Shown here piece by piece: positions 9,551 to 25,011 of a stretch of 47,977 nt of DNA (position 1 is its first letter; every line of letters begins with the position of its first letter). The DNA is from Kofleriaceae bacterium (lineage in GTDB: Bacteria > Myxococcota_A > Polyangia > Haliangiales > Haliangiaceae). The notes below the pieces were generated by a model that was given only the letters and a program-made list of their open reading frames with translations, was not told the origin of the DNA and made no database searches. Made by a program: the position numbers and the translations under genes. Where the stretch lies: NCBI GenBank assembly GCA_046597055.1, contig JBKJLC010000060.1, positions 1-47,977 of the forward strand. Direction: 5' to 3'.

Positions 9551-10246
9551 TCAGACCTGGGCGGTCTTGATGACTGCGGACGGACCGCGCCGGACGTCGG
9601 TGGCGTGGGGCAGCGTCTGGACCAGGCCGCCGCTCAGCGGGTCGGCGTTGCGGTAGTGCACGACGATCTCGGCCGCGTCGCGGAGCATGTCGATGCGGTT
9701 GACCTGCACCCGCACGACCTCGAGGCCGGTGCGCGCGGTGATGTCGGCGTACAGCGCGGCCTGGTGCCCGGGCTTGAGCAGGCTCAGGTTGTCGTACAGC
9801 ATCGGGGTCTGGGCCAGGTTGCGCGCGGCCGAGCGCAGCTCGAACAGGGTGACGCCGGTGATCACGCCGTTGACCGCGAGCAGCTCGAGCAGGCTGACGC
9901 TCTTGTTGGCGACGCCGTTGAGGATGCCGAGCCCGATCACGATGAACAGGTACGTGAGATCCCGCATCCGGATCTCTTCGGTCCGGTAGCGCAGCATGCC
10001 GAACACCGCGAACAGGCCGAGCGCGAAGCCCAGCTCCATGGGCACCTTGCGCAGCAACACGCACAGCGAGAACGTGATCACGTTGAAGATCACGTAGGTG
10101 AACGCGAACTCGCGGCCTCGATACAGCCGGTAGTAGACCCCGTAGATCACGGTGAACGTGAAGAAGAGGTCGATACCCATGCGGGTACACATCTTCGCGA
10201 GGTCGGGCCAGTCGGCGATTTGCGCGTTGCCAAGAAGGTATTCCAC
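9551..10246 (-). CDS. DUF4956 family membrane protein
   Basis: GFALGLFAVFGMLRYRTE..RDLTYLF..I.LG signature, several TM helices, C-terminal L.ADI.ARTGL. GTG start 2 nt after the VTC gene stop. Confidence 0.88.
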   Translation of the reverse strand: MEYLLGNAQIADWPDLAKMCTRMGIDLFFTFTVIYGVYYRLYRGREFAFTYVIFNVITFSLCVLLRKVPMELGFALGLFAVFGMLRYRTEEIRMRDLTYLFIVIGLGILNGVANKSVSLLELLAVNGVITGVTLFELRSAARNLAQTPMLYDNLSLLKPGHQAALYADITARTGLEVVRVQVNRIDMLRDAAEIVVHYRNADPLSGGLVQTLPHATDVRRGPSAVIKTAQV

Positions 10247-10248
10247 GG

Positions 10249-11034
10249 TCAGATCCTTTCGAGCGTCTTGAGGGCGGGGAGCAGGCGGTTCCGACCCAGC
10301 TCGGGCCGCATGAGGCTGATCGCGGTGAAGTACTTGCTCATCGACATGACGCGGGCCCGCGCGTCCCGCAGCGCGCGCATGATGGGCGTGCGGAGGCAGT
10401 ACGGCCACTGCTTGACCTCGATCACCGCGAGGTGACCGAGTGCCCTGCCGACCACGCTGCCGGCGGCGCCACCCGCGGACAGGCCGAGGTCGATGGTCAG
10501 GCGCTCGTCGGAGGTCAGGCTCAGCAGGCTGACGCGCTGGTACAGGATCGAGATCTGCGGGTGAAGATCGTCGGCGATCGCGCCGATGATCGGCCGCAGG
10601 AAGTCGCGCTCGGCGGCGCCGAGCTGCTCCTGCAGGTAGGGCATCGGGATGCGCTTCTTGTCGGTCAGCACCTCGTTCTTCTTGGTCTTGACCTCGAGGA
10701 ACGTGAGCTTGCGATCGGGGTAGTGACGGACGCGGACCTTGTGGCGATTGCGGCGGCCGCGCCGGTGATCGTGCCAGCACTGCAGGGTCGACGTGTCGAA
10801 GTAGAGGCTGTCGTAGGAGGCCAGGCAGCCACTGTCGACGCGGAGGACGGCGTAGTCGTTGGTGAGGCCGCCGAGGATCTCGTTGAGCTTCTCGGTGGCG
10901 ACGACGAACTTCGAGTCGACGCGGCTGAGCAGCGTGCGCTGGCCGAGGAGCTCCATCGAGGCCGGCGCGAAGGAGCTGAACAGCTCCTCGAGCGGGTCGG
11001 GCTGGACGGCGATGCGGGCGGTGGCGGTGGACAT
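10249..11034 (-). CDS. VTC-domain polyphosphate polymerase-like protein (CYTH/TTM tunnel fold)
   Basis: RVDSKF, SLYFDT, RHKVRVRHY, FLEVKTK, YQRVSL, ERLTID, IEVK and SKY motifs; soluble, no TM segment. Confidence 0.88.
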   Translation of the reverse strand: MSTATARIAVQPDPLEELFSSFAPASMELLGQRTLLSRVDSKFVVATEKLNEILGGLTNDYAVLRVDSGCLASYDSLYFDTSTLQCWHDHRRGRRNRHKVRVRHYPDRKLTFLEVKTKKNEVLTDKKRIPMPYLQEQLGAAERDFLRPIIGAIADDLHPQISILYQRVSLLSLTSDERLTIDLGLSAGGAAGSVVGRALGHLAVIEVKQWPYCLRTPIMRALRDARARVMSMSKYFTAISLMRPELGRNRLLPALKTLERI

Positions 11035-11038
11035 CGAA

Positions 11039-12781
11039 CTACCTCGGGGGCGGGATCATGGCGGCGAAGTTCGCGCGCCGGTCCGCGAAGAACCAGTACA
11101 TGTCCGCCTGCGAGGCACGGACCTGGTCGGTGGTGTAGGGCTTGCGCGTGTCGAGCTCGAGATAGGGCTCGATCTGGCTCATCACTCGGGTGCGCTCGCC
11201 CGCGAGGTCCATGGTCTCGGTCAGGGCCAGGATCGACCAGGTTTGGTTGGCGTAGGCCTGGAAGCAGGCCGGCGACTCCTTGCACTTGCGCGCGAGCAGC
11301 GAGGTGACCGCGGTGACGTCGAGCTGGCCGGAGTAGAAGGTCTCGTCCATACCCCACGGCACGAACGCCAGCCGACCGCTGACCGCGTCGGCGTACACGA
11401 AGTAGTCGTCGCCGGGGATGCTGTACGGGAACGCGTCGAACTGCGCGACCACCGAGCACATCGCCCAGTACCTGAGGAACGCGGTCATGTCGAGGTAGTT
11501 GCCGGCGGCGGCGATCGCGGCGTCGGCCGACGGGTCGGTCAGCGCGGCGGCCAGGCCGGTCAGCAGCGACCGGTCGTCGGCGCCGAACTCGAGCTCGTAG
11601 CGGGGCACGTCAGCGGCGACGAAGTCGACGTCGGTCGCCTCGAACAGCGAGCCGGCGGCCTGGGGGAACCAGCGCCGCACCATCGACTTCTTGACGGTCT
11701 CGACGTTGGTGTAGACGCCATAGAACTGGCCGTTCACCGTGAGCAGCGCGTGGTTGGCCCGCGACGCCGGCACCCCCGCCGAGCGCGCCACCAGGTAGGC
11801 GAGCCGCTCGTGCATCATCGAGAGGTCGTTGCTCATGTTGTTGAGCGTCAGGTCCTTCAGGCCGAAGAACTTGGCGTCCACCGCGTACTCGTCGACGTTG
11901 ATGCGGAGCGACGGCTTCCGCGCCCAGGGCAGAAACGAGTTGGCTCCCTTCAGGCGCACGCCGACCGGGCCGTAGCGCCGGCCGTCGAACACCAGGTGGC
12001 CGGGCACGTACACCAGCGGCTGGGCCTCGAGCGACGCCGCCGCCTCGGGCGAGACCTCCAGCGCGAGCTGGAGCAGCACGTTGTAGCCGAGGATCCGCTC
12101 GCTGAGATCGCCTGCGGCCGGCACCGCCTCGGGCGGCGTGGAGGCCACGTCGAGGCCCATGGGTTGGCCCGCGCCGGCGGCGTTGGCGGTGCCCGGCGAC
12201 GGGTGCCACTCGATGGTCCAGCGGTCCGAGCCATCGGGGGTGCGCGCCGCCGAGAAGTCGACCTCCTGCGCACCGTAGCCGAGGCGGTCGATCCACGAGC
12301 CGTCGGGGCGGGCCAGGCCGAGCGCACCGCTGGCGTTGCCCAGCTTGAAGCCGAGGTGGGTGGGGCCGCGCGCGGGCAGGGCGTCGGCCCACAGGACCAG
12401 GAAGCCACCGGCAGGCACGGTCAGGCCGGGCGGCAGCGTGAACTTGAGCGGCATGGTCAGGTCGTCGGTCATGCCGTAGCCGTGCAGCGAGATCGCCTGG
12501 GCGCTCGGGTTGTAGATCTCGATCCAGTCGCTGGCCGCGCCCGCGTCCTCGATCGTGAGCGCGTTGGAGGTCATGAACTCGTTGATGGTCAGGCGACCGT
12601 CGACGTCGGGCGCGACCGAGGGCACCACCGCGTCGGCCGGCGGGCCAGCGTCGGGCGAGCTGCCGTCCGGCGCGCGACCATCGGTGACGTCGTCGTCGCC
12701 GCCGACGGCCGGGCTCTGGTCGCAGCCGAGCGCGCCCAGCACGGCGGCGGCCAGCGTTAGAGAGAGCAGGCCGCGGGTCAC
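11039..12781 (-). CDS. CotH kinase family lipoprotein with lamin-tail (LTD)-like domain
   Basis: Lipobox LGALGC; LTD-like INEFM..N...DWIEIYN...SPG..N; CotH motifs GVRLKG.NS, KPSLRI, LTLNN, ERLAY, GVPASRANHA.L.VNG.FYGVY..VE, PWGMDETF. GTG overlaps the upstream stop. Confidence 0.85.
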   Translation of the reverse strand: MTRGLLSLTLAAAVLGALGCDQSPAVGGDDDVTDGRAPDGSSPDAGPPADAVVPSVAPDVDGRLTINEFMTSNALTIEDAGAASDWIEIYNPSAQAISLHGYGMTDDLTMPLKFTLPPGLTVPAGGFLVLWADALPARGPTHLGFKLGNASGALGLARPDGSWIDRLGYGAQEVDFSAARTPDGSDRWTIEWHPSPGTANAAGAGQPMGLDVASTPPEAVPAAGDLSERILGYNVLLQLALEVSPEAAASLEAQPLVYVPGHLVFDGRRYGPVGVRLKGANSFLPWARKPSLRINVDEYAVDAKFFGLKDLTLNNMSNDLSMMHERLAYLVARSAGVPASRANHALLTVNGQFYGVYTNVETVKKSMVRRWFPQAAGSLFEATDVDFVAADVPRYELEFGADDRSLLTGLAAALTDPSADAAIAAAGNYLDMTAFLRYWAMCSVVAQFDAFPYSIPGDDYFVYADAVSGRLAFVPWGMDETFYSGQLDVTAVTSLLARKCKESPACFQAYANQTWSILALTETMDLAGERTRVMSQIEPYLELDTRKPYTTDQVRASQADMYWFFADRRANFAAMIPPPR

Positions 12782-14880
12782 GGCGCGCCCCCGACCAGGC
12801 CCATGTCGGCGCGGGTGCCATCCGGGTCCAACATCGACGGGTTGCCGGCGTCGCGGCAAGCGCTGCCCGGCTGCAGGCTGAGGTCGGCGGGCATGCTGGT
12901 GAACAGCGGATCCACCGAGAGGTTGCCCGCAGTGCCGGTCGGGTCGGCCATCCCGGCGAAGGTGGCCGGCAGCGTGTTGTTGTACTCCCACACCGGCGGC
13001 GTCGTCATGTCGGGGGTCGCGGCCGGCGCCGTCACCATCACGGCGGGCACCGAGGCGTCGAGGACGTTGTTGAAGAGGATCGAATTCTCGACGGTCAGCC
13101 CGCTGGCGTTGGTCCACAGCGCCGAGCCACCCTGCGCGGCGCGGTTGTTGTGGATGACCGTGAAGTCGATGCGGCCGATCGGGTTGACCGGCGGCGCGGG
13201 ACACGGCGGCACCTGGCACGGCTCCATCCACGGGCTGCCGACCGCGTGGTGGATCGCGCCACCGGTGTTCGCGCGGTTGCCCGAGAACACCGAGTCGGTG
13301 AGCGTGAAGTTGGTGGCGCGGACCATGAGCCCGCCGCCGAGGCCGGCGACGTTGTCGCGCACGCGCAGGCGCCGCAGGGTGATGGGTTGGAAGTTGTCGT
13401 CGATGAACAGCCCGGCGCCGCGCCAGGCGCGGTTGCCGGAGATCAGGACGTCCTCCATGAGCTGACCGTTCCAGGGCGCGAGCCAGAGGAAGACGCCGCC
13501 GCCGGAGCCGCCGGCGGTGTTGCCGGTGATCTCACCCCCGCGCATCACGCTGGCGTCGTTGTCGAGGTCGTAGCCGCCGCCGGTGCCGCCCGCCGTGTTG
13601 TTGCGGACGATGTTGTTCACGACCGTGCAGGCGACGTGCGAGATGCGGACGCCGCCGCCGGCATCGCCGGCCCGGTTGTTCTCGATGATGTTGGCCTCGA
13701 CCAGGCCCGCGCTCTCGAACATGCGCAGCCCGCCGCCGTCGTCGTTCGAGGTGTTGGCGGCGATCGTGTTGGCGCGGAAGGTCGGGGCGCCCTGGTGGAC
13801 ATAGATGCCGCCGCCGTCGTTCTCCGACGAGTTGCCACGGACGGTGTTGCCCTCGAACAGGAACGAGTAACCGACGGTGTGGACGCCGCCGCCGGTCCAG
13901 CCGGCGACGTTGTCGACCACCTGATTGCCGGTCACGGTGCCCTCGCTCATGTGATAGAGCCCGCCGCCGCGCAGCCCGGCGCGGTTGAGTCGCAGCTCGT
14001 TGCCGTCGATGACGACGGTGCCTCCGGCGGTCGCGAGCCCGGCGCCGTTGACGCCGGTGTTGTTGATGAACTGGTTCGCCCGGACCGTCCCGGTGCTGGC
14101 GGTCAGCGCGGCGCCACCGCCGGTGGGGCCACCGTCGTTCTGCTCGAAACGAGTGCCGCTGATGTCGACCGCACACAGCGAGGTGTACAAGCCGCCGCCG
14201 CCACCGGTGGCCCGGTTGGCCACGACCGCGCTGTCGCGCAGCTGCAGCGTGCTCGAGACGCAGCGGACGCCACCACCTTCGGTCGCGGTCGCGCCGTTGG
14301 TGAAGGTGAGGCCGGTGACGGTGACGCCCGCGCCGCCGGTCTGCTCGATGGTCAGGGCGGTGCCGGCCGCGCCGGCGTCGATGATCGTCGTCGCTGCGCC
14401 GGCACCGACCAGGCTGAGCGCCTTGCCCATGATGGCGAGGCGCTCCGGGTAGGTGCCGGCGCAGATCTGGATGGTGTCGCCGGCGCTGGCCGCCTGGATC
14501 GCGGCGCCGACGGTCGTGAACGTCGCACCGGCCGCGCAGACCTGCAGGGTCTGGGGCACGGGTGGGGCGTCGGTCGGTGCGTCGGTCCCCGTGCCAGCGT
14601 CGATGGCCGGAGCGGCGTCGATGACCGGGCCGGCGTCGGTGCCGGGGACAGGGCCACCGTCCGTGTCGGGATCGGGACCGGGATCTCGGCTGTCGCCAGG
14701 AGCTCCGTCCGGGGTGCCGTCGCCGGGACCTCCATCCGGGCTGCCGCTGCTGGCATCGCTCCCGGTGTCGTCATCATCGGAGCCCGAGCCGCCCGGTCCG
14801 GCTGTCCCGGAGCATCCAGTGAAAGCGACCAGAGCCCCCGTCAGAAGGGTCGAAACGATCCCGATGCCAGTCAGCCGCAT
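12778..14880 (-). CDS. Right-handed parallel beta-helix (pectin-lyase-like fold) lipoprotein
   Basis: Lipobox FTGC, acidic Gly/Pro linker, TVGAAIQAA..GDTI.I..GTY.E cap, many N.A...GGG turns, C-terminal DP.F...L.L..GSAC.DAG.P...D.DG.RADMG. ATG at 14880. Confidence 0.85.
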   Translation of the reverse strand: MRLTGIGIVSTLLTGALVAFTGCSGTAGPGGSGSDDDDTGSDASSGSPDGGPGDGTPDGAPGDSRDPGPDPDTDGGPVPGTDAGPVIDAAPAIDAGTGTDAPTDAPPVPQTLQVCAAGATFTTVGAAIQAASAGDTIQICAGTYPERLAIMGKALSLVGAGAATTIIDAGAAGTALTIEQTGGAGVTVTGLTFTNGATATEGGGVRCVSSTLQLRDSAVVANRATGGGGGLYTSLCAVDISGTRFEQNDGGPTGGGAALTASTGTVRANQFINNTGVNGAGLATAGGTVVIDGNELRLNRAGLRGGGLYHMSEGTVTGNQVVDNVAGWTGGGVHTVGYSFLFEGNTVRGNSSENDGGGIYVHQGAPTFRANTIAANTSNDDGGGLRMFESAGLVEANIIENNRAGDAGGGVRISHVACTVVNNIVRNNTAGGTGGGYDLDNDASVMRGGEITGNTAGGSGGGVFLWLAPWNGQLMEDVLISGNRAWRGAGLFIDDNFQPITLRRLRVRDNVAGLGGGLMVRATNFTLTDSVFSGNRANTGGAIHHAVGSPWMEPCQVPPCPAPPVNPIGRIDFTVIHNNRAAQGGSALWTNASGLTVENSILFNNVLDASVPAVMVTAPAATPDMTTPPVWEYNNTLPATFAGMADPTGTAGNLSVDPLFTSMPADLSLQPGSACRDAGNPSMLDPDGTRADMGLVGGAP

Positions 14881-14894
14881 GGTTCCGTCTCCAA

Positions 14895-14910
14895 TGCCAG
14901 TTCCGCGCCA
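14895..14910 (-). promoter_or_regulatory. sigma54-type -24/-12 promoter candidate
   Basis: Minus strand TGGCGCGGAACTGGCA (GG-N10-GC), 14 nt before the ATG at 14880. Confidence 0.45.
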
Positions 14911-15151
14911 CCACCTACCGGTCAAGCGACGGCTCGGCTGCGCCCAGTTACGACCTTCCCGATTGTGTGCGAGGTAACCAACTGTTGGCCGAGGCCACGC
15001 TTCGCGCGCACGTCGTGGCGATACCGCACGTCGTGAGGCGGTGGCGCGTACATCCCGCTCGGTGGCCCCGCCGGTGCGCGCGATCACGCCACGACCCGCG
15101 CGTTCCTGCCGCGGGCGTGCGCGACCGCGCCTCACCTGACTGCGCGGCCCG

Positions 15152-15192
15152 AAACGAAAGAAGCCCGCCGAACGACCAGGCGTTCGACGGGC
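15152..15192 (-). terminator. Rho-independent terminator after the 15210-16610 CotH gene
   Basis: Minus strand GCCCGTCGAACG-CCTGGT-CGTTCGGCGGGC stem-loop followed by TTCTTTCGTTT, 17 nt after the stop codon. Confidence 0.75.
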
Positions 15193-15209
15193 ACCGGGGG
15201 GGTGTCTGG

Positions 15210-16610
15210 TCACATGCAGACGGTTGCAGCGTCGACGGTGTCGACGTAGCCGTCGCAGTTGTCATCACGAAGATTGCAAATCTCGGCGGCGCCGGGGTGC
15301 ACGGCCGGATCCCGGTCATTGCAGTCGTGGCACATGTCGGTGCCGTCCCCATCGCCGTCCGGGCCGCCGCTGCGCTCGCAGGCGAGCCAGCTGTCGATGT
15401 ACGCGGCGCGATCCGACGTGAACTCACGCATCCGATCGACGGCGATATAATGAGCTTCCATCGCGAATGGCTTGTGCGAATCCTCGGCGATCGCAGTGAC
15501 GATCTGCTCCTGCCATCGCGTGATGCGCTGCTGCATCGCACCAGCGTCGAACATGCCGCGCGCCGCTGCGAGGCTCGCGACGTAGCGGGCGCGCACGGCC
15601 GGGTCGTTCAGGGCGACCAGGTAGTGGTGCCAGTCACCGTCCCAGCGCGACGCGCACGCCGGGAACACGGGCGACTCCACCGGCAACAAGTAGTCCTCGT
15701 CGATCGCGGTGTCGACGTCATGGGGTAGCCAGATGAAGCCGCGGGTCGGATGGTCATACAGGTAGAAGTTCGCGCGTCCGTTGTAGTAGCCGTCGGCGTC
15801 GCCGATCATCGCCTCGGTGGTCCACTCTTGCAGCGCGGCGTCGAGGTCGGCGAGCTGCTCGAGCCCGGCCACGTCGCGGATCGCCCACAGGGCGTTGATA
15901 CGTGTGGTGGTGTGGGTCAGCTCGTTGGTCTTGATGGCGAAACCGCCCGCCCACAGGTCGCCGTTGTCGGCTGCTCCGAAGTTGCGCTGGAGGAACTCCT
16001 TGTCGAGCCGCTCGAGGTTCGTATACAGGCCGTAGTACTGCCCGTTGATGTAGAGCCGCGCGTTGTTCGCGCACTGGGCCGGAACCCCGGCCTGGCGCAT
16101 GAAGGAGAGCGCCACCCGCTGCTTCAGGAAGCTCTGGTCGCTGCGGGGCATGTCGAGCTCGATCTTGCGGATACCCATGAAGCGGCCCGCGGGATCGACC
16201 TCGTTGAACGCGATCACGAACTGCATCTTCGGGTTGGCGTCGAGGTCGAGCGCCTGCAGCCAAGAGGTCGAGCCCTTGAGCCGGAGCAGCACGTTCGGCA
16301 CCGGCTCACCGGTCGTCGCGCCCTGCTTGTAGCGGAACTGGACCGGGTGATACGGCCGCGGGTCGAGCCCCTGGGCTTCCCGGTCGACGCGGTTCACGAA
16401 CTCGTTCTGGAGCGCGGCCAACTCGGTCGGTGAGATGTCGAGGTGGTACTCGGGCAGGATCCCCTGCGAGAACAGCTCGGGACAGTTGCCGTCCAGCTCG
16501 ACGTCCGGGACATCATCGCCGTCGTCGCCTCCGCCATCGCCGCCCATCGGCCCAGCTCCTCCACATCCGATCAACAGCAGTATCGGCAGGACCAGGATAG
16601 TGCGGTTCAT
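15210..16610 (-). CDS. CotH kinase family lipoprotein with C-terminal Cys/Asp putative metal-binding motif
   Basis: Lipobox LIGC; LRLKGSTS, GVPAQCANNARLYING.YYGLY.NLE, DGYY...NFYLY, LPHDVD; C-terminal DCNDRDPAVHPGAAEICNLRDDNCDG (MopE-like repeat common in myxobacteria). Confidence 0.85.
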   Translation of the reverse strand: MNRTILVLPILLLIGCGGAGPMGGDGGGDDGDDVPDVELDGNCPELFSQGILPEYHLDISPTELAALQNEFVNRVDREAQGLDPRPYHPVQFRYKQGATTGEPVPNVLLRLKGSTSWLQALDLDANPKMQFVIAFNEVDPAGRFMGIRKIELDMPRSDQSFLKQRVALSFMRQAGVPAQCANNARLYINGQYYGLYTNLERLDKEFLQRNFGAADNGDLWAGGFAIKTNELTHTTTRINALWAIRDVAGLEQLADLDAALQEWTTEAMIGDADGYYNGRANFYLYDHPTRGFIWLPHDVDTAIDEDYLLPVESPVFPACASRWDGDWHHYLVALNDPAVRARYVASLAAARGMFDAGAMQQRITRWQEQIVTAIAEDSHKPFAMEAHYIAVDRMREFTSDRAAYIDSWLACERSGGPDGDGDGTDMCHDCNDRDPAVHPGAAEICNLRDDNCDGYVDTVDAATVCM

Positions 16611-17551: not shown

Positions 17552-17566
17552 CGTGAAGGGGGCATC

Positions 17567-17582
17567 TGCATGCAGCATGCCG
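17567..17582 (-). promoter_or_regulatory. sigma54-type -24/-12 promoter candidate
   Basis: Minus strand CGGCATGCTGCATGCA, 15 nt before the ATG at 17551. Confidence 0.5.
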
Positions 17583-17601
17583 CCCTGCGAAGCAGGCCGT
17601 A

Positions 17602-18993
17602 TCAGATGTTTACGAAGGCCCCGAAACGCGGCAACTCCATGAACGCCGCCGCCGCCGCGGCACGCGGACCGGCCGCGGATGGGTCGATCACGAGCGCACG
17701 CGTGAGTACATTATCCCCGGTCGCTCCGTCCCAGATGCCCTGATTGGCAAGGCGGATCGCGTAGCGAGGATCGTCGGCGAGTGAGGTCGCTTCGTCGGGT
17801 AGCCGGAGCGCCAGCACGTAACTTCCGCTCGCGAGCGGGGAGGGGATGCGCAGGCGCACGGTGAGCGTTGCGTGCGTCCCCGGCGCCCACCGCCGAGCGT
17901 CCGCGTGTGAGATCCGCACGGTGTGGCGAGTCTCACCATCGACGAGGACCAGCTCGACCGGGCGCGGGTTGTACGGCGCGGCGAATCCAACGTTGCGGAC
18001 GTCGAGCTCGAGCCTCAGCTCACCGCCAGGGGCGACCGCCTCACTGTGCGCGACGCGGCCGACGGTGAACCGGTAGCCGAGGCGGCGCTCGATCTCGTCG
18101 GCGCAGCCCTGCGCGACGAAGCCGGCCACGACCGCCGGATGGTAGTGCCGGTTGAGATAGGACCAGTGGAGGCGCTCCATCTCGGCGAGCGCGCTCGCAC
18201 GGTTGGTGCGTGGCGGGTTCACGGCGCAGGTCTCGCCGCCGACGGCGGTGTAGCGGCTGTCCTCGGCCAGGTAGGCCTGCCAGGCGCTGACCGGCACTGC
18301 GTAGGTGCCGAGATCGTCGTCGCTCGCGAGGAAGGCGTCGTTGTGGTGGCCGAGCCGGGCCCGGGCCGAGCCGGTGAAGGCCTCGGCATCGGAGACCGGG
18401 CCGCCCGGCACGTACGCGGCCTTGTACATCGGGGTCCGCACCTGCACGCCGCGCGAGGCGGGCAGGGCGGCCAGGAGTGCGTCGAGGATCGCGGCCCGAT
18501 CGGTCGGGTTCGCGAGGCGGTTGGTCGAGCCGTGCCACTCGCCCCAGGCGCCGATGAAGCCGGCTTGCATGATCGCGATGACGTCGGCGTTGGCGTACAG
18601 CAACGGGGCGAGCTGATCGAGGTGGCCGAGGATCGTTGCTCGCGGCGCGTCGGCGGCGAACGCGGCGTTGTAGCTGAAGCGCAGGATCACCTTGATGCCG
18701 GCGGTGCGGACCTGCTGGAAGCCGCGGTGCAGCGTCGCGAGGAGGCGCGCGTCCAGGGGCCGACGCCGGTGGCGGGCGAGCTTCACGACCGCGATCGCCA
18801 GGGTGTCGCCGCCCATGCGGATGACGCTGGCGTCGCCACCACGACGCAGGTCGTACCCGACATAGAACCCTCGCTCGGGATTCGGGAAGATCGCGTCGGT
18901 CGCGGCGAGGTCGAAGGTGCGCATCGGCCGGGCGCGAAGTGGAGCCCGGGTTGTCTTGGCCGTCGACTCGGGCCAGAGAGGATTGTCCGACAT
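17602..18993 (-). CDS. DUF4874/DUF4832 protein, putative TIM-barrel glycoside hydrolase
   Basis: NPERGF, KVILRFSY, QAGFIGAWGEWH, GHHNDAFLAS, GGET, HWSYLN and LGYRF, followed by a beta-sandwich (N.GFAAPYNPR). Start could be at 18924. Confidence 0.85.
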   Translation of the reverse strand: MSDNPLWPESTAKTTRAPLRARPMRTFDLAATDAIFPNPERGFYVGYDLRRGGDASVIRMGGDTLAIAVVKLARHRRRPLDARLLATLHRGFQQVRTAGIKVILRFSYNAAFAADAPRATILGHLDQLAPLLYANADVIAIMQAGFIGAWGEWHGSTNRLANPTDRAAILDALLAALPASRGVQVRTPMYKAAYVPGGPVSDAEAFTGSARARLGHHNDAFLASDDDLGTYAVPVSAWQAYLAEDSRYTAVGGETCAVNPPRTNRASALAEMERLHWSYLNRHYHPAVVAGFVAQGCADEIERRLGYRFTVGRVAHSEAVAPGGELRLELDVRNVGFAAPYNPRPVELVLVDGETRHTVRISHADARRWAPGTHATLTVRLRIPSPLASGSYVLALRLPDEATSLADDPRYAIRLANQGIWDGATGDNVLTRALVIDPSAAGPRAAAAAAFMELPRFGAFVNI

Positions 18994-19112
18994 GGCACCC
19001 GGCCGTCACCTGGGGCCGCTTCACGCGTGCACCACCGTGCGTTGTGTGTGCGAGAACGCCCAACCGAGCGGCTATGAGACGGTGCAGCACGGGCAAGTGG
19101 GCGCCTGGGCAA

Positions 19113-19128
19113 CGGTCCAGGATCTGCA
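19113..19128 (+). promoter_or_regulatory. sigma54-type promoter candidate for the rightward pel-like operon
   Basis: CGGTCCAGGATCTGCA (GG-N10-GC, ends TGCA), 12 nt before the ATG at 19141. Confidence 0.45.
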
Positions 19129-19140: not shown

Positions 19141-21108
19141 ATGCGGTCATCGCGGAGTAGAGCGCAGCTAATTCGGCCTCATGGGCTCGCTGCTGGTGGT
19201 GCGGCGGTGCTGTGCGCGGCCCTGATCTCAGCATCTCCCGCAGGGGCGGCTCCCGTACCGTCGAGCACGGAGGGCGCGACGAGCGCGACCACCGCGGCCA
19301 GCGCGACCGGCGCCGTGACCGGCACCAGCACGGTCGAGGTCACGGTCGAGGTCTCGGAGCCGAAGTACGACGGCTTCCAGGCCCTGCTCGACGCCGAGGC
19401 GCGCGACGCGCTCGGCAAGGGCGACTTCGGTCGCGCGCTGTGGCTGTTCTCGCGGCTGCTTCACATCGATCCTTATGACGTGCGCGCGCTGCGCGAGAGC
19501 GGCCGCATCGCGCACGCGCTCGGCGAGTGCAACCTCGCCGCCGGCACGCTCCGCCGCGTCGACGAGCTCGACGGCACCGTGCCCGACCCCGAGATCCACT
19601 ACCTGCGCGCCGAGTGCTTGCTCGCGCTCGGCAAGAAGGACGAGGGCTGGAAGGAGTTCGCGCGGGTCGAGCAGGAGCTGGGCGACGGCCCTCACGATCG
19701 CCGCGCCACGCTGTGGCTCGCGCGCATCGCGGTCCTCCGCTCCGACCTCGACAAGGCGGTCCGGCTCTACGAGTCGCTGCTCGAGAAGGATCACCCCGAT
19801 TCGGCGACCTACGCCGAGGTCCTCATGTACGAGGTCGACGCCTATATCCAGGGCGCGGAGTGGGCGACCGCCGAGAAGCTGCTTCGCGACTTCCTCCGCG
19901 ACCAGCCGACCAACCCGCGCGGCCGGGCCCTGCTGGCCTGGGTGCTCGAGAGCCGTGGCAAGGTCGACGAGGAGCTCGCGCTCCGCGCCGAGCTCGCCAA
20001 CGAGAAGGGCGATCGGCCCCAGCAGATCCTGGCGCACGCCCGCGCGCTCGAGCGCGCCAACGACTACTCGGGCGCGCTCGGTCGCTACCGAGAGGCCCAG
20101 GACCTCGGCGTCAAGGAAGCCGCCGATGGCATCCGCCGCATCGAGCGCCGCTATCGCCCCGAGCTCGGCGGCGGGTTCAGCATGCAGAACGACCCGTCGG
20201 GCACGCTCACGGGCTGGCTCGCCGGCGCCGCGGTCCCGATCGGCTCGCGCCTGCGGCTGGCGGTGTCGAGCGCGAGCCAGACCTCGGCCGGTGGCCTCGG
20301 CATGAACGAGCGTTCGTCGACCGCGCTGTCCGGCTGGGGTGTCGTCACCGCTCGGCGTGGCGCGGTTGTCGGGCTCGGTAGCACGGTCCGGCTCGACAGC
20401 GAGCGCGCGGCTCGCGTCGGCGGCAGCGCGATCGTCCAGACCAGCCCGCTCAGCGACGTCCAGCTCCAGGTCCGCGGCGACGCCAACGTCCCGTGGCGGG
20501 AGTCGGCCAGCACGTTCCGCGACGACGGCGTCCAGGACACCGTCGGCGCCCAGCTCTACCTGAAGTCGTCGATCAGCGAGCGCCGCATCCTCGCCAGCGT
20601 CGGCGCCCAGGCCCGGCGGCTCGCGCTCGAGCCGCGGGTGGGGCTGCCGACCGACAAGGCGGTCCAGCTGTTCGGTTCGGCCGGCATCGACGTCACCCTG
20701 ACCAAGCCGTCGGCGCGCGCCGTGCGCGGCGAGAGCTTCGAGAACGAGATGCTCGCGACGCGCGGGCTGGCTTCAGCGGCCGTCGTGTCGTATCGCCACT
20801 ACGAGCTCTCGTCAGACGATCCGTTCGGCGCCCGTCTGGTCCTGGTCGAGCGCAGCAGCATCGACGAGGTCTCGGGCGTCGTCCGGCGGGTGTTCGACCG
20901 CAAGGGCATCGTCGGTGGCGAGCTGCGCGCCGGCGTCGGCTACGACTGGGTCCGATACGTACAGCAGTGGCGCGCCGGCGCGTCGCTGCTGGTTGCCGGG
21001 ACCAACTGGAGCCGGCTCACACTCGACTACGACGTCGCGAGCGAGAGCGGCACGGGCCTCTCCGGTCGTCGTCACCTCGGATCGGTGGTGTTCCATGTCG
21101 ACCTCTGA
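19141..21108 (+). CDS. Exported TPR + C-terminal beta-strand-rich (probable beta-barrel) protein, PelB-like
   Basis: Signal peptide (..SPAGA), several TPR-like repeats, then ~330 aa of amphipathic strands ending HLGSVVFHVDL; first gene of the operon containing pelF and pelG. Confidence 0.6.
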   Translation: MRSSRSRAQLIRPHGLAAGGAAVLCAALISASPAGAAPVPSSTEGATSATTAASATGAVTGTSTVEVTVEVSEPKYDGFQALLDAEARDALGKGDFGRALWLFSRLLHIDPYDVRALRESGRIAHALGECNLAAGTLRRVDELDGTVPDPEIHYLRAECLLALGKKDEGWKEFARVEQELGDGPHDRRATLWLARIAVLRSDLDKAVRLYESLLEKDHPDSATYAEVLMYEVDAYIQGAEWATAEKLLRDFLRDQPTNPRGRALLAWVLESRGKVDEELALRAELANEKGDRPQQILAHARALERANDYSGALGRYREAQDLGVKEAADGIRRIERRYRPELGGGFSMQNDPSGTLTGWLAGAAVPIGSRLRLAVSSASQTSAGGLGMNERSSTALSGWGVVTARRGAVVGLGSTVRLDSERAARVGGSAIVQTSPLSDVQLQVRGDANVPWRESASTFRDDGVQDTVGAQLYLKSSISERRILASVGAQARRLALEPRVGLPTDKAVQLFGSAGIDVTLTKPSARAVRGESFENEMLATRGLASAAVVSYRHYELSSDDPFGARLVLVERSSIDEVSGVVRRVFDRKGIVGGELRAGVGYDWVRYVQQWRAGASLLVAGTNWSRLTLDYDVASESGTGLSGRRHLGSVVFHVDL

Positions 21109-22054
21109 AAAAATCGTCCTGGCCGAGACCGTCGGCGCGTCCGCCCTGGTGGTCGGGTTCATCACCCTGGTGTCGCCGGGCGACGTCTGGCTGCAGTCGT
21201 GGGGCATGCACCCCATGTGGTTCGTCGTCATCTTCATGTCGTCCCGCTACGCGATCCGCGGCCTGTTCTCGACGCTCGCGCTGACCAGCCTCGGCCTGAT
21301 CGCGGCCAGCTACGCGACCGGCGGGTCGATCGCAGGCTTCATCGCCCGCAGCCAGAGCACGCTCGACCTGCTGGCGCTGGCGACGGCGGTGCTGGTGGCC
21401 TGGGTCGCCATGGCGCACGACGGCAAGAGCAGCCGGGTGTCGGAGCGCCTCACCGAGGCGAGCGACGCCCAGCGCCAGGCCGAGCAGAGCGTCCACGCGC
21501 TCCACGCCAGCCTCGGCTACCTGCGCACCCGCCACGATCGCCTCGACGTCTCGCTCAGCCTGTGGCGCAACCTGGCCGGCCGGCTCGAGCGTGGCGATGC
21601 GAGCGAGGCCGCCAAGGCGCTGCTCGAGCTGTGCGAGATGCGCGCGGGCGCGCGGGTGGGCCTGGTCCAGCTCCGCGACGGCAAGCGCCTGACCACGCTG
21701 GCCTGTCGCGGTCACTGGCCGGCGACCAGCCGCCCGAACGAGGACGACAGCGACCCGACCGTGCGGGCCGCGATCGAATCGCGCCAGGTGACCCCGGCCG
21801 GGCCGGGCGCGACCGAGGCGGACAGCGACATCGCGATCCCCGTCATCGACGACGAGAGCGGCGCGGTCGTCGGCATCATCGCCCTGCGCGGCGTGTCGCC
21901 CGACTCCATGCGCGCCGCCGACCTGCGCGACCTCGGCATCCTCGGTCAGTGGGTCGCGCCGGCTCTGGCGCGGGAGCTCCGCCGCCAGTTCCGCAAGGCG
22001 ATCGGCGAGCTCGCGCCGCCGCCACGCCGTACCAGCCAGGTGAGCACGCTGTGA
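21095..22054 (+). CDS. pelD: PelD-like membrane protein (TM helices + coiled coil + GAF), lacking the GGDEF domain
   Basis: N-terminal TMs with P.W......SRYA..GL, a coiled coil, and a GAF-like domain (VRAAIE, IAIPV......VGIIAL, DL..L..L). Ends after the GAF; GTGA-coupled to pelF. Confidence 0.65.
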   Translation: MSTSEKIVLAETVGASALVVGFITLVSPGDVWLQSWGMHPMWFVVIFMSSRYAIRGLFSTLALTSLGLIAASYATGGSIAGFIARSQSTLDLLALATAVLVAWVAMAHDGKSSRVSERLTEASDAQRQAEQSVHALHASLGYLRTRHDRLDVSLSLWRNLAGRLERGDASEAAKALLELCEMRAGARVGLVQLRDGKRLTTLACRGHWPATSRPNEDDSDPTVRAAIESRQVTPAGPGATEADSDIAIPVIDDESGAVVGIIALRGVSPDSMRAADLRDLGILGQWVAPALARELRRQFRKAIGELAPPPRRTSQVSTL

Positions 22055-23604
22055 CCACGCGGACCCCCACCGCCTCCGGCACGAGCGGCACCAGCCTCGC
22101 GAGCAGCCCGGACCTGGCCGACGTCACGCTGATCCTCGAAGGGACGTATCCGTACGTCGCCGGTGGGGTCTCGACCTGGGTCGACCAGATCCTCCGCGCT
22201 TATCCCGATCGCCGGTTTGCTTTGCTGCACATCGGCGCCCACCCGGAGGCGTACGAGAAGCCGCGCTACGAGATGCCCCCCAACGTGACCTCGCTGCACG
22301 AGGTCCACTGCCGCGGCATCGAGCAGACCGGCAAGGCGGTGCCCCGGGTCGAGCTGTCGCCGGCGCGCAAGGTCCCGTCGCGGGTGCTGTCGGCGATCCG
22401 GCGGCTGCACCTGTCGGACGAGGTCGACGACACCCTGCTGGCCGACCTGTCGTCGGGCGACCTGTCGATGAACGAGTTCCTGCACGGCGCCGACACCTTC
22501 AACCTCATCCGCACCGAGCTGTACGACAAGCTCAGCGCGGGCGCGCCGTTCATGGACTTCTTCTGGCACTTCCGGGCGATGCACGTCCCGCTGTTGCGCC
22601 TGATGGCGGCCGAGTGCCCGCCGGCCAAGGTCTATCACGCGGTCTCCACCGGCTATGCCGGCCTGGTCGGCGCGGCCGCCAGCCTCAAGACGGGCCGGCC
22701 GCTGGTGGTGACCGAGCACGGCCTCTACGCGCGCGAGCGCGAGATGGAGCTGTCGCGGGCGACCTGGATCAAGGATCTCGATCACCGCAAGATCGTGGGC
22801 GGCGCGCCCAAGCCGTCGCCGCTGCGCCGGTTCTGGTCGCACTACTTCCGCATGATGTCGCGCATCGCGTATCGGCAGGCGACCCGCCTGGTCACGCTGA
22901 GCGAGGCCAACCGCGCCAAGCAGCTCGCTGACGGCGCCGACGCCGCCAAGATCTCGGTGGTGCCCAACGGGGTCAAGCGGACCTCGGCGATCGGCACGCC
23001 GCCCACCCAGCCGGTGCCGCGCCAGACGCCGGCCGGTCAGCTGCGGGTCGGCTTCGTCGGTCGGGTGGTGCCGATCAAGGACGTCATCACCCTGATCCGG
23101 GCGGTCGCGCAGGCGTGCGAGCAGAACGACCTCGAGGTCTGGATCATCGGCCCGCAGGACGAGGATCCGGCGTACTCCAAGCGCTGCCGCCAGCTGGTCA
23201 CCACGCTGAACCTCGAGGAGCGCATCAAGTTCCTCGGGCCCCAGCCGGTCGCCGAGATCTATCCGCAGCTCGACGTCGTGCTGCTGACCAGCCTCAGCGA
23301 GGGTCAGCCCCTGGTGATGCTCGAGGCCTACGCGGCCGGGCTGCCGGTGATCGCGACCGACGTCGGCGCCTGCCGCGAGATGATCGAGGGCGGCGACGAC
23401 CTCGACCGCCAGATCGGTCCCAGCGGCATCGTGACCCGCGTCGCCAACCCGGCCGAGACCGCGGCCGCCCTGTGTGTCCTGGCCGGTGATCCGGAGCTGC
23501 GCCTCCGCATGGGGCGGAACGCATTTGCCCGGGTGAACGCGCGCTACCAGCTCCAGCACGTGGTCACCCGCTACGAGACGCTCTACGCGAGCATGGAGTC
23601 CTGA
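22051..23604 (+). CDS. pelF: GT4 glycosyltransferase PelF
   Basis: LEGTYPYVAGGVSTW, STGYAG, TEHGLY.RER, GRVVPIKDV, SLSEGQPLVMLEA and TDVGACRE, characteristic of PelF (DUF3492 + GT4). Confidence 0.93.
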   Translation: MTTRTPTASGTSGTSLASSPDLADVTLILEGTYPYVAGGVSTWVDQILRAYPDRRFALLHIGAHPEAYEKPRYEMPPNVTSLHEVHCRGIEQTGKAVPRVELSPARKVPSRVLSAIRRLHLSDEVDDTLLADLSSGDLSMNEFLHGADTFNLIRTELYDKLSAGAPFMDFFWHFRAMHVPLLRLMAAECPPAKVYHAVSTGYAGLVGAAASLKTGRPLVVTEHGLYAREREMELSRATWIKDLDHRKIVGGAPKPSPLRRFWSHYFRMMSRIAYRQATRLVTLSEANRAKQLADGADAAKISVVPNGVKRTSAIGTPPTQPVPRQTPAGQLRVGFVGRVVPIKDVITLIRAVAQACEQNDLEVWIIGPQDEDPAYSKRCRQLVTTLNLEERIKFLGPQPVAEIYPQLDVVLLTSLSEGQPLVMLEAYAAGLPVIATDVGACREMIEGGDDLDRQIGPSGIVTRVANPAETAAALCVLAGDPELRLRMGRNAFARVNARYQLQHVVTRYETLYASMES

Positions 23605-23607
23605 GTC

Positions 23608-25011
23608 ATGGCGGGCATCGGCTGGCGACTGGAACGGATGATCGATCGCGACTCGCTCGCGTCGACGCTGGGCGCATTCCTCACCGGGGTCGCGGTCACC
23701 TCGGGGCCCTGGCTGCTCACGACGCTGGTGCTGGTGCTCATGCGCATCAGCGCGATGAACGCCGGCGTCGAGGGCGTGAACGACGTCGAGCGGATCATCA
23801 CCGTCGTGTACGCGATGGTGATCGTGCTGAGCGCGCCGCTCGACATCGTGCTCAGTCGCTACGCCTCTGACCGCGTCTACGAGGAGCGCCGCGATCGGAT
23901 CGCGGCGCCACTCCAGTGGATGGTCGCCGCCTCCCTCGTCATCTTCGCGACGCTCGGCGCGGTGGCGATGTACGTGATCGACGCGCCGCTGTCGCTCGCC
24001 GTGCCCGGCACCATCCTGGCCGCGGTGGTCGCCGCCCAGTGGCTGCTGCTGTCGGCCGCCGGCGGCCTGTCGTCGCCGGGCATCATCCTGAAGGCGTTCG
24101 CGTTCGGCGCGCCGGTCAGCGTGATCGCGGTCGTCATCCTGTGCCGCCCCGACCTGATGGGCGCTGATGGCTACCTCTACGGCTACGGCGCCGGCCAGCT
24201 GGTGACGCTCACGCTCTTGCTGTGGGGCACGCTTCGCGCGCTGCCCGCCGAGGAGGACGAGACCGCCACCATCCTGCCGGCCTTCCGCGAGTACTGGCTG
24301 TTGTCGGCCGCGGCGCTCGCGTTTCACGCCGGCCTCTGGGTCGACAAGCTGGTCATCTATCTCCTCGCTGGCGGCGCGGTCGCGTCGATGTACGCCTCGA
24401 CCGCGGCGGTCGCCTGGCTGTCGGTGGTGCCGGCGTGTGCCTACCTGTTCGTCACGATCGAGACGGTGTTCCACCGCCGGTTCCGCGCGTACTACGCGGC
24501 GCTCCACACCGGCGCCTCGCTCGGCGAGCTGGAGAACCTGTCGCGCGACCTGCGCATCGAGGTCGCTCGCACCCTGGGCGGGACCGCGATGATCCAGGCC
24601 TGCGTGACGCTGGTGTGTCTGCCGGCCGCGCCGGTCATCGTGCGCTCGCTCGGCCTCGCCAGTGACGGCGCCACCCTCACCTGGCTGCTGCTCGGCGCTG
24701 GCCTGCAGGTGGTGGCCGTGTCGACGACGCTGCTCCTCTACTACTTCGACTTCCGGCGCGAGGCGTTTCTCGCCGCGGTCAGCCAGCTGATCGCCAACGG
24801 CCTGCTGACCGCGCTGGTCGGAGCCCCGTCGGTGCTGATGGGCGCCGGCTACACCGTGGCCTGCGCGCTGACCTGCGCGATCTCGATTGTCCTCCTGTTC
24901 CGGCGCATGCACGGCCTGCTCGAGCGCACGTTCCAGGGCCAGCCGTACGCGTCCGAGGACTACGGGGTGGTCGACGCCGCGCGCGCCCAGGCGCTGCGCT
25001 CGCACGCCTGA
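23608..25011 (+). CDS. pelG: Pel exopolysaccharide transporter PelG
   Basis: MAGIGWRL N-terminus, SGPWL, SRY.SDR.Y, GLWVDK, IET.F...FR.YY and LYYFD; about 12 TM segments; immediately after pelF. Confidence 0.92.
   Translation: MAGIGWRLERMIDRDSLASTLGAFLTGVAVTSGPWLLTTLVLVLMRISAMNAGVEGVNDVERIITVVYAMVIVLSAPLDIVLSRYASDRVYEERRDRIAAPLQWMVAASLVIFATLGAVAMYVIDAPLSLAVPGTILAAVVAAQWLLLSAAGGLSSPGIILKAFAFGAPVSVIAVVILCRPDLMGADGYLYGYGAGQLVTLTLLLWGTLRALPAEEDETATILPAFREYWLLSAAALAFHAGLWVDKLVIYLLAGGAVASMYASTAAVAWLSVVPACAYLFVTIETVFHRRFRAYYAALHTGASLGELENLSRDLRIEVARTLGGTAMIQACVTLVCLPAAPVIVRSLGLASDGATLTWLLLGAGLQVVAVSTTLLLYYFDFRREAFLAAVSQLIANGLLTALVGAPSVLMGAGYTVACALTCAISIVLLFRRMHGLLERTFQGQPYASEDYGVVDAARAQALRSHA

Follow-up and report, generated by a model that had tools for sequence, protein, structure and literature searches.

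A Pel-type exopolysaccharide locus contiguous with CotH, VTC and DUF4956 genes in a diderm, Kofleriaceae-like bacterium

The eleven genes at 9551..25011 of the window, that is, of the whole 47,977-nucleotide stretch of contig JBKJLC010000060.1 that was analysed, constitute a Pel-type locus by their family assignments, and a family-by-family check found all of them to be real and correctly named. The host is a diderm, Kofleriaceae-like bacterium and carries a Pel-locus variant that is new there, with a short PelB-fold porin and a PelD devoid of GGDEF. The pairing of pel with cotH, VTC and DUF4956 genes has already been published for Gram-positive bacteria, and what is new is its recurrence in a two-membrane bacterium. 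Reports of the set next to pel go back to 2020. The preferred reading, which is held tentatively and at less than even confidence, is that a reusable module for polyphosphate synthesis and export, together with CotH enzymes, could tune a largely acetylated Pel, apparently under common sigma54 control. The features of the locus are as follows:

9551..10252, minus strand, DUF4956 inner-membrane protein
10249..11034, minus strand, VTC-domain (Vtc4-like) candidate polyphosphate polymerase
11039..12781, minus strand, LTD-CotH lipoprotein
12778..14880, minus strand, right-handed beta-helix lipoprotein
14895..14911, minus strand, sigma54-type motif
15163..15192, minus strand, terminator-like hairpin
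15210..16610, minus strand, CotH2 lipoprotein
16613..17578, minus strand, PelE
17567..17583, minus strand, sigma54-type motif
17602..18993, minus strand, DUF4874+DUF4832 glycoside hydrolase
19112..19128, plus strand, sigma54-type motif
19141..21108, plus strand, short PelB-like export porin
21095..22054, plus strand, PelD
22051..23604, plus strand, PelF, a GT4 glycosyltransferase
23608..25011, plus strand, PelG inner-membrane exporter of a divergent clade

The Pel genes and their predicted product

A preliminary description of this DNA had proposed a Pel-type locus, and this identification holds. PelF (NF038011, 469 bits, cut-off 100) and PelG (PF16933, 261 bits, cut-off 29) score above curated cut-offs, PelD and PelE were recognised by HH, and the PelB fold was recognised by Foldseek; overall, Pfam and NCBI profiles, HH and Foldseek support the assigned names, the 700-aa beta-helix lipoprotein being without a Pfam match. 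The PelB-like porin, with 655 aa versus ~1000–1300 aa for canonical PelB of the same class, combines a TPR region (~78–337) with a C-terminal beta-barrel (model pLDDT 82), and its best Foldseek match was PelB (9h80_M, E 2.2e-12), followed by BcsC, with the PgaA-type 4y25 lower. The profile of this short PelB had no match in 400 further genomes sampled phylum-wide, with three candidates scored per genome. PelD (319 aa) comprises a transmembrane region, a coiled coil and a GAF domain (weak Pfam GAF match) and lacks both the C-terminal degenerate, c-di-GMP-binding GGDEF and the N-terminal SDR; its profile matches canonical Polyangia PelD with an HH probability of 97.3, in an alignment that stops before the canonical GGDEF. 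PelE (HH probability 97.9 to canonical Polyangia PelE) has its probable start at 17551, and its gene is displaced, most related loci having the homologue flanked by pelD and pelF; it lies within the CotH arm and, as had been claimed, joins both arms. PelG homologues form two score classes in the genome survey, and the tree sets the window-type PelG, which is only 23–29% identical to canonical Polyangia copies, as a divergent clade.

A ten-sequence Polyangia PelC profile, which a very divergent PelC might escape, had no match in the genome, and PelC was found in none of the 30 short-PelB loci. The absence of PelA noted earlier extends to the genome (94% complete), where no gene for PelA, PelA_DA, a PelA_H-like protein, Agd3 or DUF2194 was found; about seven loci elsewhere in it contain CE4 deacetylase genes (nine matches), whose products could act on the polymer. 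By homology, PelDEFG would be a minimal synthase that polymerises an alpha-1,4-GalNAc-type chain and moves it over the inner membrane, and the short PelB porin would export it. With PelC and a dedicated deacetylase missing and PelD devoid of a c-di-GMP site, this chain would probably be largely acetylated and neutral. The Pel architecture of the clade dispenses with PelA, PelC and the c-di-GMP switch and offers a test of the minimal needs of Pel export. The MshEN-like genes that follow pelG in relatives were considered as a substitute c-di-GMP receptor and rejected, since they lack the RLG motif and have no close orthologue in the source genome.

The accessory module and its promoters

The VTC-domain protein (Pfam 77 bits) is a soluble protein of 261 aa without signal peptide, SPX domain or fused transmembrane channel. 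A single-sequence PDB search gave no match; the profile search did match Vtc4 (3g3q, E 8e-13). All nine Vtc4 catalytic residues are kept, with K42, R101, R103, K116, Y165, R167, E206, S233 and K234 corresponding to Vtc4 K200, R264, R266, K281, Y359, R361, E426, S457 and K458, respectively; seven are invariant over 86 homologues, R103 occurs in 84 of them, and Y165 was checked in the window's copy only. Judged by these residues, the protein looks catalytically intact. DUF4956 (Pfam 141 bits), whose gene overlaps the VTC stop by 4 nt, has five predicted helices and a C-terminal alpha/beta (ACT-like) domain (model pLDDT 70), the conserved basic loops YRLYRGR and RYRTEEIRMRD, and conserved R47, R88, R90 and R97. 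A model of VTC with three DUF4956 copies weakly suggests a complex: its ipSAE was 0.36 (best control 0.01), in a range, up to 0.60, where models are wrong more often than right unless the pairing is likely beforehand, the mark for ipSAE being attained by 116 of the 157 solved complexes and by 2 of the 215 mismatches; contact agreement between runs was at least 88% and partner pLDDT at least 74. DUF4956 has no fold resemblance to the VTC channel, as Foldseek returned nothing for it at E <= 0.001 and the best Z was 7.5 (its model has a pTM of 0.45). The 89-row DUF4956 alignment used for the complex model, the single model and the fold searches, and also for the genome search, the search of the related locus L008 and the VTC-neighbour and 30-locus counts, included two unrelated DUF3108-like rows, whose self-matches were left out of the 30-locus count and disregarded in the VTC-neighbour count.

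DUF4956 adjoins VTC in 18 of 20 window-type loci, CotH is near VTC in only six of 20, and at other VTC loci the VTC–DUF4956 pair is accompanied by HlyD and/or outer-membrane efflux genes (5/20), which points to export. In L008 (genome G170), VTC and two CotH genes are at pel and the sole DUF4956 match is on a different contig. The source genome also has PPK1 and PPK2, for cytoplasmic polyphosphate.

Both CotH copies differ from the B. cereus kinase, the residue roles being taken from alignment to 5jd9 and from a review. CotH2 carries a MopE-type Cys/Asp motif in its C-terminal part. It retains D273, N281 and D298, the likely equivalents of PKA D166, N171 and D184, and His297 occupies the position of the adenine-stacking Trp. 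In LTD-CotH (lipobox Cys20), this set is not complete: the catalytic-base Asp (D449) and W476 are kept, but Asn is replaced by D459 and the metal-binding Asp by G477, and the protein reads as a pseudokinase or an altered enzyme; its PWGMD variant is common to the orthologues in L008 and L088. As for the adenine sandwich Tyr142/Trp245, the Trp is present in LTD-CotH and is His in CotH2, the register of Tyr142 being uncertain by one residue. The 700-aa beta-helix lipoprotein was assigned through Atlas matches and weak NosD/PemA matches, and its ten best Atlas matches having a family belong to the family or clan of the top match; against the PDB, it matched only a pectin methylesterase, at E 0.04. 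It has orthologues in L008 and L088 (51–54%) and is probably polysaccharide-binding. The glycoside hydrolase belongs to the family of S. intermedius SIR_1591 and has no signal peptide or lipobox in any upstream frame, a lipobox being present in five of seven aligned homologues; an upstream motif common to all five relatives compared is also missing here. With four further paralogues elsewhere, the genome contains five DUF4832 genes, eight CotH matches and two VTC–DUF4956 pairs. Decay of the DUF4832–pelE–cotH2 block, considered for its low GC3 and missing lipobox, was rejected, as identities to orthologues equal those among orthologues.

Sigma54-type motifs of the form GG-N10-GC were scored out of 28 and end 12–15 nt upstream of the starts of pelB (21/28), pelE (24/28, from the start predicted at 17551) and the beta-helix gene (24/28), against a background of 15 of 474 gene starts scoring at least 23 and 31 scoring at least 21; both arms carry similar motifs, as previously remarked. 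The motif that heads the beta-helix/LTD-CotH/VTC/DUF4956 unit is near-identical in L008 and absent in L088, the one before pelE–cotH2 scores 27/28 in L008 and 25/28 in L090 with the same spacing and does not occur at that spacing in four other relatives, and the one before the pelB-D-F-G arm (GGTCC...TGCA) is common to L008, L086 and L090. A sigma70 scan found no promoter. The left arm had been regarded as one unit; its gene content stands, but not its unity, as a 329-bp gap with a terminator-like hairpin after cotH2 (12-pair stem and T-rich tail) splits cotH2 from the beta-helix gene. Such hairpins are no commoner than in shuffles (4 found vs 3.1), and position alone favours this one.

Recurrence of the module and its possible functions

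The adjacency of pelFG with CotH and VTC genes recurs beyond the source genome, as five of the six loci in the subclade of the window's locus have module genes, arranged in three or more different orders. The six pel-linked VTCs belong to three lineages, which 0% of bootstrap trees unite (AU test p 1e-50), and the window's VTC is 32–36% identical to sister-locus VTCs over ~100–120 aa (partial), the other genes of the sister loci being 45–73% identical. VTC genes were thus drawn into pel loci from three separate lineages, so that the link is selected, not accidental; that this took place in a distant group of diderms speaks for a genuine functional connection with Pel. That abundant CotH and VTC genes merely came to lie beside pel by descent and chance is very improbable: the several copies in the genome and the kinship of subclade members would fit, whereas the three VTC lineages, the same parts kept through rearranged orders, the published presence of the same accessory set beside pel in Firmicutes and bifidobacteria and the changes in Pel caused by knockouts would not. 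A thymidylate-kinase-like neighbour in sister loci was rejected as a PPK2, since it matches dTMP kinases, and has no BLAST match in the source genome; a plasmid search for PelG returned only proteobacterial matches.

VTC is present in 178 of 401 genomes and PelG in 54 (nine and two, respectively, of nine within the genus), and CotH, VTC and DUF4956 occur together in all five tested genomes without PelF over the cut-off. A published statement confines the trio to pel loci; the present finding runs against it and argues for a general envelope module. Polyphosphate itself could be the end product: placed in the periplasm or matrix by VTC–DUF4956, it would store phosphate, chelate cations or accompany Pel as an anionic partner, with CotH binding, trimming or recycling it (e.g., in nucleotide regeneration) and not phosphorylating the Pel machinery. 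VTC mostly lies beside phosphate-handling genes without pel, with a Na/Pi cotransporter in eight of 20 sampled loci and phosphate-porin-like, phytase-like, PPDK_N and efflux genes among its neighbours, and neither CotH copy conforms to the B. cereus enzyme, all of which suits this explanation. Nevertheless, it does not on its own account for the common arm in which several relatives keep the CotH pair, the beta-helix gene and pelE, nor for the lowered Pel on cotH deletion, and it is rather unlikely.

An anti-correlation between module and deacetylase had been proposed and was not observed. Among 30 short-PelB loci, eight contain the phosphate module, five an in-locus Agd3, one both, against 1.3 expected by chance, and 18 neither, and at the genome level Agd3 is present in 29 of 39 genomes. 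In the window's subclade, five loci have the module, one Agd3 and none both; among the seven subclade genomes lacking an Agd3-type locus, Agd3 is present in three (G170, G404 and G405) and absent in four (G000, G401, G402 and G403). Moreover, pelA_DA and the module occur together in published Gram-positive loci. Replacement of deacetylation by phosphorylation is not supported. In its strong form, CotH would move phosphate from exported polyphosphate onto Pel, and an anionic phospho-GalNAc matrix would replace the cationic deacetylated one. The subclade pattern, the lack of a dedicated deacetylase and the company of CotH genes with the beta-helix protein and a gene of a Pel hydrolase family speak for it, as does a resemblance of CotH to Fam20C. 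The Fam20 family includes a glycan kinase. However, besides the counts and the Gram-positive loci above and the trio in pel-less genomes, an anti-(GalNAc)3 antibody still recognises S. intermedius Pel, which Sph3 and PelA_H also still cleave, and this form appears unlikely. More unlikely still is that VTC and DUF4956 are a split bacterial version of the yeast-type polyphosphate synthase-translocase, with CotH and a pseudokinase partner phosphorylating un-deacetylated Pel and anionic phospho-GalNAc leaving via a PelC-independent short PelB; if true, VTC–DUF4956 powers ATP-free phosphorylation outside the cytoplasm.

The accessory genes have been deleted in Streptococcus intermedius, where loss of the DUF4956-type gene raised Pel and loss of CotH lowered it; changes in aggregation and in Pel level, opposite in the two, were reported only for these mutants, none being singled out for the polymerase deletion (PMC12345266). 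The module mutants still make Pel, which is mostly GalNAc. A simple linear pathway from polyphosphate to CotH predicts matching phenotypes, with which these knockouts disagree. Opposite effects suit regulators, and regulation without export would have VTC as a cytoplasmic phosphate or energy sensor, DUF4956 as an MgtC-like regulator of PelDEFG and CotH as ATP-using or non-catalytic, replacing the c-di-GMP switch lost by PelD. PelD lacks GGDEF here as in streptococci, for which reason Whitfield et al. proposed regulation by CotH; DUF4956 has been described as MgtC plus ACT, and one homologue shows a weak MgtC match. Yet the short PelD occurs in all examined loci of the clade, 22 of 30 of which are without the module, the CotH lipoboxes place these proteins outside the cytoplasm, where ATP is scarce, and the HlyD/efflux partners of VTC–DUF4956 suggest transport, so that regulation of this kind seems unlikely, if less so than the strong form of Pel phosphorylation.

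In the preferred reading, cytoplasmic VTC would dock on a DUF4956 oligomer, make polyphosphate from ATP and thread it into the periplasm. There, the CotH lipoprotein that is intact, perhaps with the degenerate LTD-CotH as its partner, might use polyphosphate as phosphoryl donor, the weakest step; its targets would be polymer-handling proteins or lipoproteins of the envelope. The module would be an accessory that tunes Pel amount or retention, neither a substitute for PelA nor needed for polymer synthesis. The interpretation first given to this DNA is partly supported, and the wider question that it touches is how bacteria could phosphorylate outside the cytoplasm. The source genome is supporting evidence more than a key system, because the decisive chemistry is feasible with purified proteins and existing S. 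intermedius mutants. A literature search found no paper on polyphosphate use by CotH or on the activity of a bacterial VTC protein.

Comparison with known systems

Compared with the Pseudomonas aeruginosa-type pelABCDEFG, which in its canonical form is also found in other Polyangia (L046–L064), the locus shares PelD, PelE, PelF, PelG and a PelB-fold porin, but has no PelA, PelC or c-di-GMP domain, and its PelB is about half as long. With the Agd3 (CE18)–pel-like loci (PMC7229062) the likeness lies in sister loci of the clade with Agd3-like and GH114 genes, whereas no Agd3 was found in the source genome. The tunnel-fold catalytic domain and the nine named residues are shared with the yeast VTC complex (Vtc4/Vtc3/Vtc1); here, there is neither SPX nor a fused membrane part, and the proposed partner, DUF4956, has no detectable relation to the Vtc channel. 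The Bacillus spore-coat kinase CotH (5JD9/5JDA) is matched by profile over the whole domain (E 4e-35), CotH2 keeping the D/N/D equivalents; unlike it, the proteins here are non-Bacillus envelope lipoproteins, with His for Trp245 in CotH2 and Gly for the metal-binding Asp in LTD-CotH.

A system of this layout had been thought uncharacterised, but the layout is published for streptococci and clostridia, where pel genes are flanked by cotH, polyphosphate polymerase, DUF4956 and DUF4832 genes (PMC7112168), and is partly characterised in S. intermedius (SIR_1591-1594, PMC12345266). In contrast to these Gram-positive pelDEA(DA)FG loci, the locus described here has a diderm host, a PelB-fold porin, no PelA_DA, two CotH lipoproteins and a beta-helix lipoprotein, divergent arms with a moved pelE and sigma54-type motifs, and a DUF4832 protein without export signal. 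PelD is without GGDEF here and in streptococci; unlike PelD of the Gram-positive loci, the copy here also lacks an N-terminal SDR. At the family level, the four accessory families, cotH, polyphosphate polymerase, DUF4956 and DUF4832, are contiguous with pelDEFG here as they are in the Gram-positive loci.

Gene content and promoter-type motifs of the two arms

The window (GC about 72%) encodes, as judged by homology, a Pel-type synthase together with its porin, and its nearest PelG relatives belong to MAGs of Kofleriaceae and other Myxococcota. Pfam and NCBIfam searches upheld the families and positions assigned in the preliminary description (DUF4956, VTC, LTD plus CotH, CotH, DUF4874 plus DUF4832, PelF and PelG), and its pelE-like gene proved to be PelE (HH 97.9%), whose homologues follow the order pelD-pelE-pelF in most related loci. 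The 319-aa gene product is a PelD without GGDEF (HH probability 97.3%), while the predicted fold of the 655-aa TPR protein combines TPRs and a beta-barrel, with PelB as top structural match. In L008:10223-10720 and L090:619-1179, two relatives, PelE is shortened to its N-terminal 166-180 residues and cotH2 lies close behind; small MshEN-like proteins lacking the RLG motif occur 3' of pelG in L002, L003, L005 and L008, often with a Ser/Thr kinase gene alongside.

Features of the window mentioned in the text
154-2142 (-): fusion of a queuine tRNA-ribosyltransferase and a Methyltransf_30 domain
5580-9463 (-): one VIT/vWA and one TPR-DUF2135 gene; the pair has a sigma54-type motif of its own (9456, 25/28), and L007 and L024/L041 carry distant homologues 3' of pelG
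16613-17578 (-): pelE
25126-25755 (-): Cu/Zn-SOD-like lipoprotein that co-travels with the locus (also in L008 and L088)
26704-28549: 1.7 kb past pelG, a membrane diguanylate cyclase whose GGDEF motif is intact, although PelD has no c-di-GMP domain; an expansin-like DPBB lipoprotein adjoins it

In the window, L008 and L088, the SOD-like lipoprotein carries Tyr in place of the first Cu-binding His of the motif, and may be an inactive dismutase.

Within each gene block, neighbours overlap or are separated by 2-23 nt, and the left arm is split by a 329-nt gap holding a terminator-like hairpin. Sigma54-type motifs lie ahead of pelB, of pelE and of the beta-helix gene at similar spacing, in both arms as first described; they are seen again in some relatives and exceed the background (15/474 gene starts at score 23). 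Genes resembling sigma54 activators directly precede short pelB in L089, L091, L092, L093 and L095, the matches being verified by Pfam or NCBIfam for L091, L093 and L095.

The profile of 86 VTC sequences matches yeast Vtc4, and the nine Vtc4 residues named in passages of a cryo-EM preprint (10.1101/2023.01.27.525886) have as counterparts in the window VTC, counted along the profile alignment, K42, R101, R103, K116, Y165, R167, E206, S233 and K234; by homology, the Vtc4-type active site appears intact. The DUF4956 model has five helices and an alpha/beta domain, its basic loops being conserved, and fold searches for DUF4956 gave no significant match. A prediction of VTC with three DUF4956 copies, an assumed stoichiometry, scored 0.36 against 0.01 for the best control (contact agreement at least 88%, partner pLDDT at least 74); 116 of 157 solved pairs and 2 of 215 mismatched ones attain the mark used, and a prediction at 0.36 is more often wrong than right unless likely a priori. 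The model hints at a VTC-DUF4956 complex. The window's genome has a second VTC-DUF4956 pair (G000:C183:6188-7617), 53% and 65% identical; a TPR-like gene and then an M36 peptidase come after it, on a stretch without pel or CotH.

The CotH proteins are, by homology, exported lipoproteins. CotH2 keeps the three catalytic positions, with His for the adenine-stacking Trp, and in LTD-CotH and its orthologues Gly replaces the metal-binding Asp; CotH2 and LTD-CotH may form a kinase/pseudokinase pair. The 700-aa lipoprotein has a right-handed beta-helix fold. The DUF4832 copy has neither the lipobox nor the upstream motif seen in its relatives, yet is not otherwise diverged.

Short-PelB loci and the deacetylase question

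PelG was found in 54 of 401 Polyangia genomes, in two score groups; we retrieved 20 loci or fragments near the top of the score ranking and 24 loci that scored lower, picked for long contigs. High-scoring loci are canonical pelA-B-(C)-D(GGDEF)-E-F-G, whereas the low-scoring group, the window included, has short PelB, short PelD, PelE, PelF and PelG; in a PelF+PelG tree of 59 loci this group stands on a branch of its own. A metagenome scan found 111 loci, 80 of which were added. Merging near-identical copies left 76 distinct short-PelB loci; the 30 with at least 12 kb were counted and the other 46 dropped. As these loci are related by descent and their flanks are finite, the tallies are descriptive only: PelC in 0/30, a stand-alone PelA-hydrolase-like gene in 20/30, CotH, VTC or DUF4956 in 8/30, and Agd3 in 5/30.

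Canonical and divergent pelG coexist in G121, G221, G274, G286, G290, G314 and G360, and genomes of genus g55 hold several Agd3-like genes. Most short-PelB loci of family f12 have a divergent arm headed by a conserved 120-aa protein (L022:6756-7118 and about 50 other loci; weak DUF2795 match, menaquinone-pathway genes often next) and a stand-alone PelA-hydrolase-like gene. Among 20 retrieved stretches, CotH (three loci) or DUF4832 (one) adjoins canonical pel genes in L059, L063, L065 and L048, CotH exceeding a rough expectation of about 0.4 (from 8 CotH per 8.4 Mb).

Searches for PelA, PelA_H-like, PelC, Agd3 and DUF2194 found no match in the window's genome, which is 94% complete; one GH114 and nine CE4 matches lie away from the locus. 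According to the preliminary description, phosphorylation of a Pel-like polymer or its associated surface proteins by CotH with exported polyP may take the place of PelA deacetylation, which would give an anionic matrix. The anti-correlation of module and deacetylase that this implies did not materialize: of the 30 loci, one has module and Agd3 and 18 have neither, and in the window's subclade (6 loci) the module occurs in 5/6 and Agd3 in one. The main argument for a phosphorylated polymer falls away, because a deacetylase can accompany the module and loci with no deacetylase do without the module; we regard such a polymer as unlikely.

The module beside pel and elsewhere

The adjacency of pel and module is not confined to the window's genome and is repeated in related loci. 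Sister loci retain cotH2, the beta-helix gene, LTD-cotH, pelE and DUF4832 at 51-65% identity, with a different VTC sited between DUF4832 and pelE; L003, L004 and L005 carry a distant DUF4956 3' of pelG. The six pel-linked VTCs, a group set by gene context, chosen once a first tree had been seen and leaving out L029 (14 kb from a pelG), need three origins in a 44-row IQ-TREE tree, and the AU test rejects their forming one clade (p-AU 1e-50). Chance adjacency of module and pel is very unlikely.

VTC occurs in at least 178/401 genomes, a count that misses at least the VTC at the pel locus of G170 and includes two unpublished genomes (G309, G338), on which nothing but genome tallies depends. In 20/20 loci picked from this survey list, pel genes were absent within about 9.5 kb of VTC; a Na/Pi cotransporter and a dTMP-kinase fusion lay nearby in 8/20, and in 5/20 DUF4956 was accompanied by genes for HlyD, for outer-membrane efflux or for both. 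Among 20 of the 37 matches to the window's own VTC (one locus without gene calls), DUF4956 was present in 18, CotH in 6, a PPDK_N gene in 7 and pel in none, and five genomes hold CotH, VTC and DUF4956 together with no PelF above the cut-off. The module is not pel-specific.

Three further arrangements were seen. VTC, a Na/Pi cotransporter and a dTMP-kinase fusion (about 575 aa, including a repeat-like 380-aa C-terminus without known family) form a conserved cluster in L066-L069, L072, L073, L077, L078 and L016, sometimes with phosphate-porin-like and DUF3108-like genes. The operon VTC - DUF4956 - DUF3108-like - PPDK_N (PEP-synthase-like ATP-binding domain) occurs in L070, L075, L076 and L167-L175, in many Kofleriaceae-type genomes. 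In L080-L084 and L029, VTC-DUF4956 shares operons with HlyD-type adaptors, TolC-like efflux proteins or both, and some of these operons add phytase-like domains, LTD or CotH. They resemble a tripartite polyP exporter whose inner-membrane part is DUF4956, and may be a stronger lead than the link to pel.

Candidate mechanism and published systems

Tentatively, and with less than even confidence, we favor the view that polyP export and CotH together form an accessory module, which would act on envelope proteins and so tune a Pel that is mostly acetylated. PolyP would be made by VTC and pass through DUF4956, and CotH would use the exported polyP, with envelope proteins as its candidate targets.

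The preliminary description knew of no characterized system with this layout, but passages of PMC7112168 and PMC12345266 already describe the accessory genes and their association with Pel. In the former, cotH, polyphosphate polymerase, DUF4956 and DUF4832 adjoin pelDEA(DA)FG in streptococci and clostridia; bifidobacteria have a variant. Regulation by protein phosphorylation is suggested there. Passages of the latter report deletion of each of the four accessory genes of S. intermedius, whose polymer is mostly GalNAc; every mutant still forms Pel and aggregates. Loss of SIR_1592 (DUF4956-type) raises Pel and loss of SIR_1594 (CotH) lowers it, both cutting aggregation in sputum medium by >50%; no effect of deleting SIR_1593 (polymerase) or SIR_1591, an active hydrolase, is singled out in that text. 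The opposite effects favor, over a simple linear pathway, both polyP itself as the end product, which we consider somewhat unlikely, and regulation without export, which is unlikely.

The same passages of PMC12345266 describe the trio of CotH, polymerase and DUF4956 as absent outside pel loci; neither the trio without pel nor a threefold recruitment of VTC was found in the portions searched of the literature on pel, Agd3, DUF4956, VTC and CotH. The titles and abstracts listed for DUF4956 yielded no study of its biochemistry, and literature listings no recognizable biochemical study of bacterial VTC or of CotH with polyphosphate. Passages of PMC7229062 list Stigmatella among Agd3 carriers and place Agd3 genes near pel-like genes; passages searched for 'Myxo' in PMC7112194, PMC7890745, PMC7229062 and PMC13254593 held no mention of Myxococcota. 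The searched portions of that literature likewise did not show a diderm Pel architecture with short PelB that lacks PelA, PelC and GGDEF.
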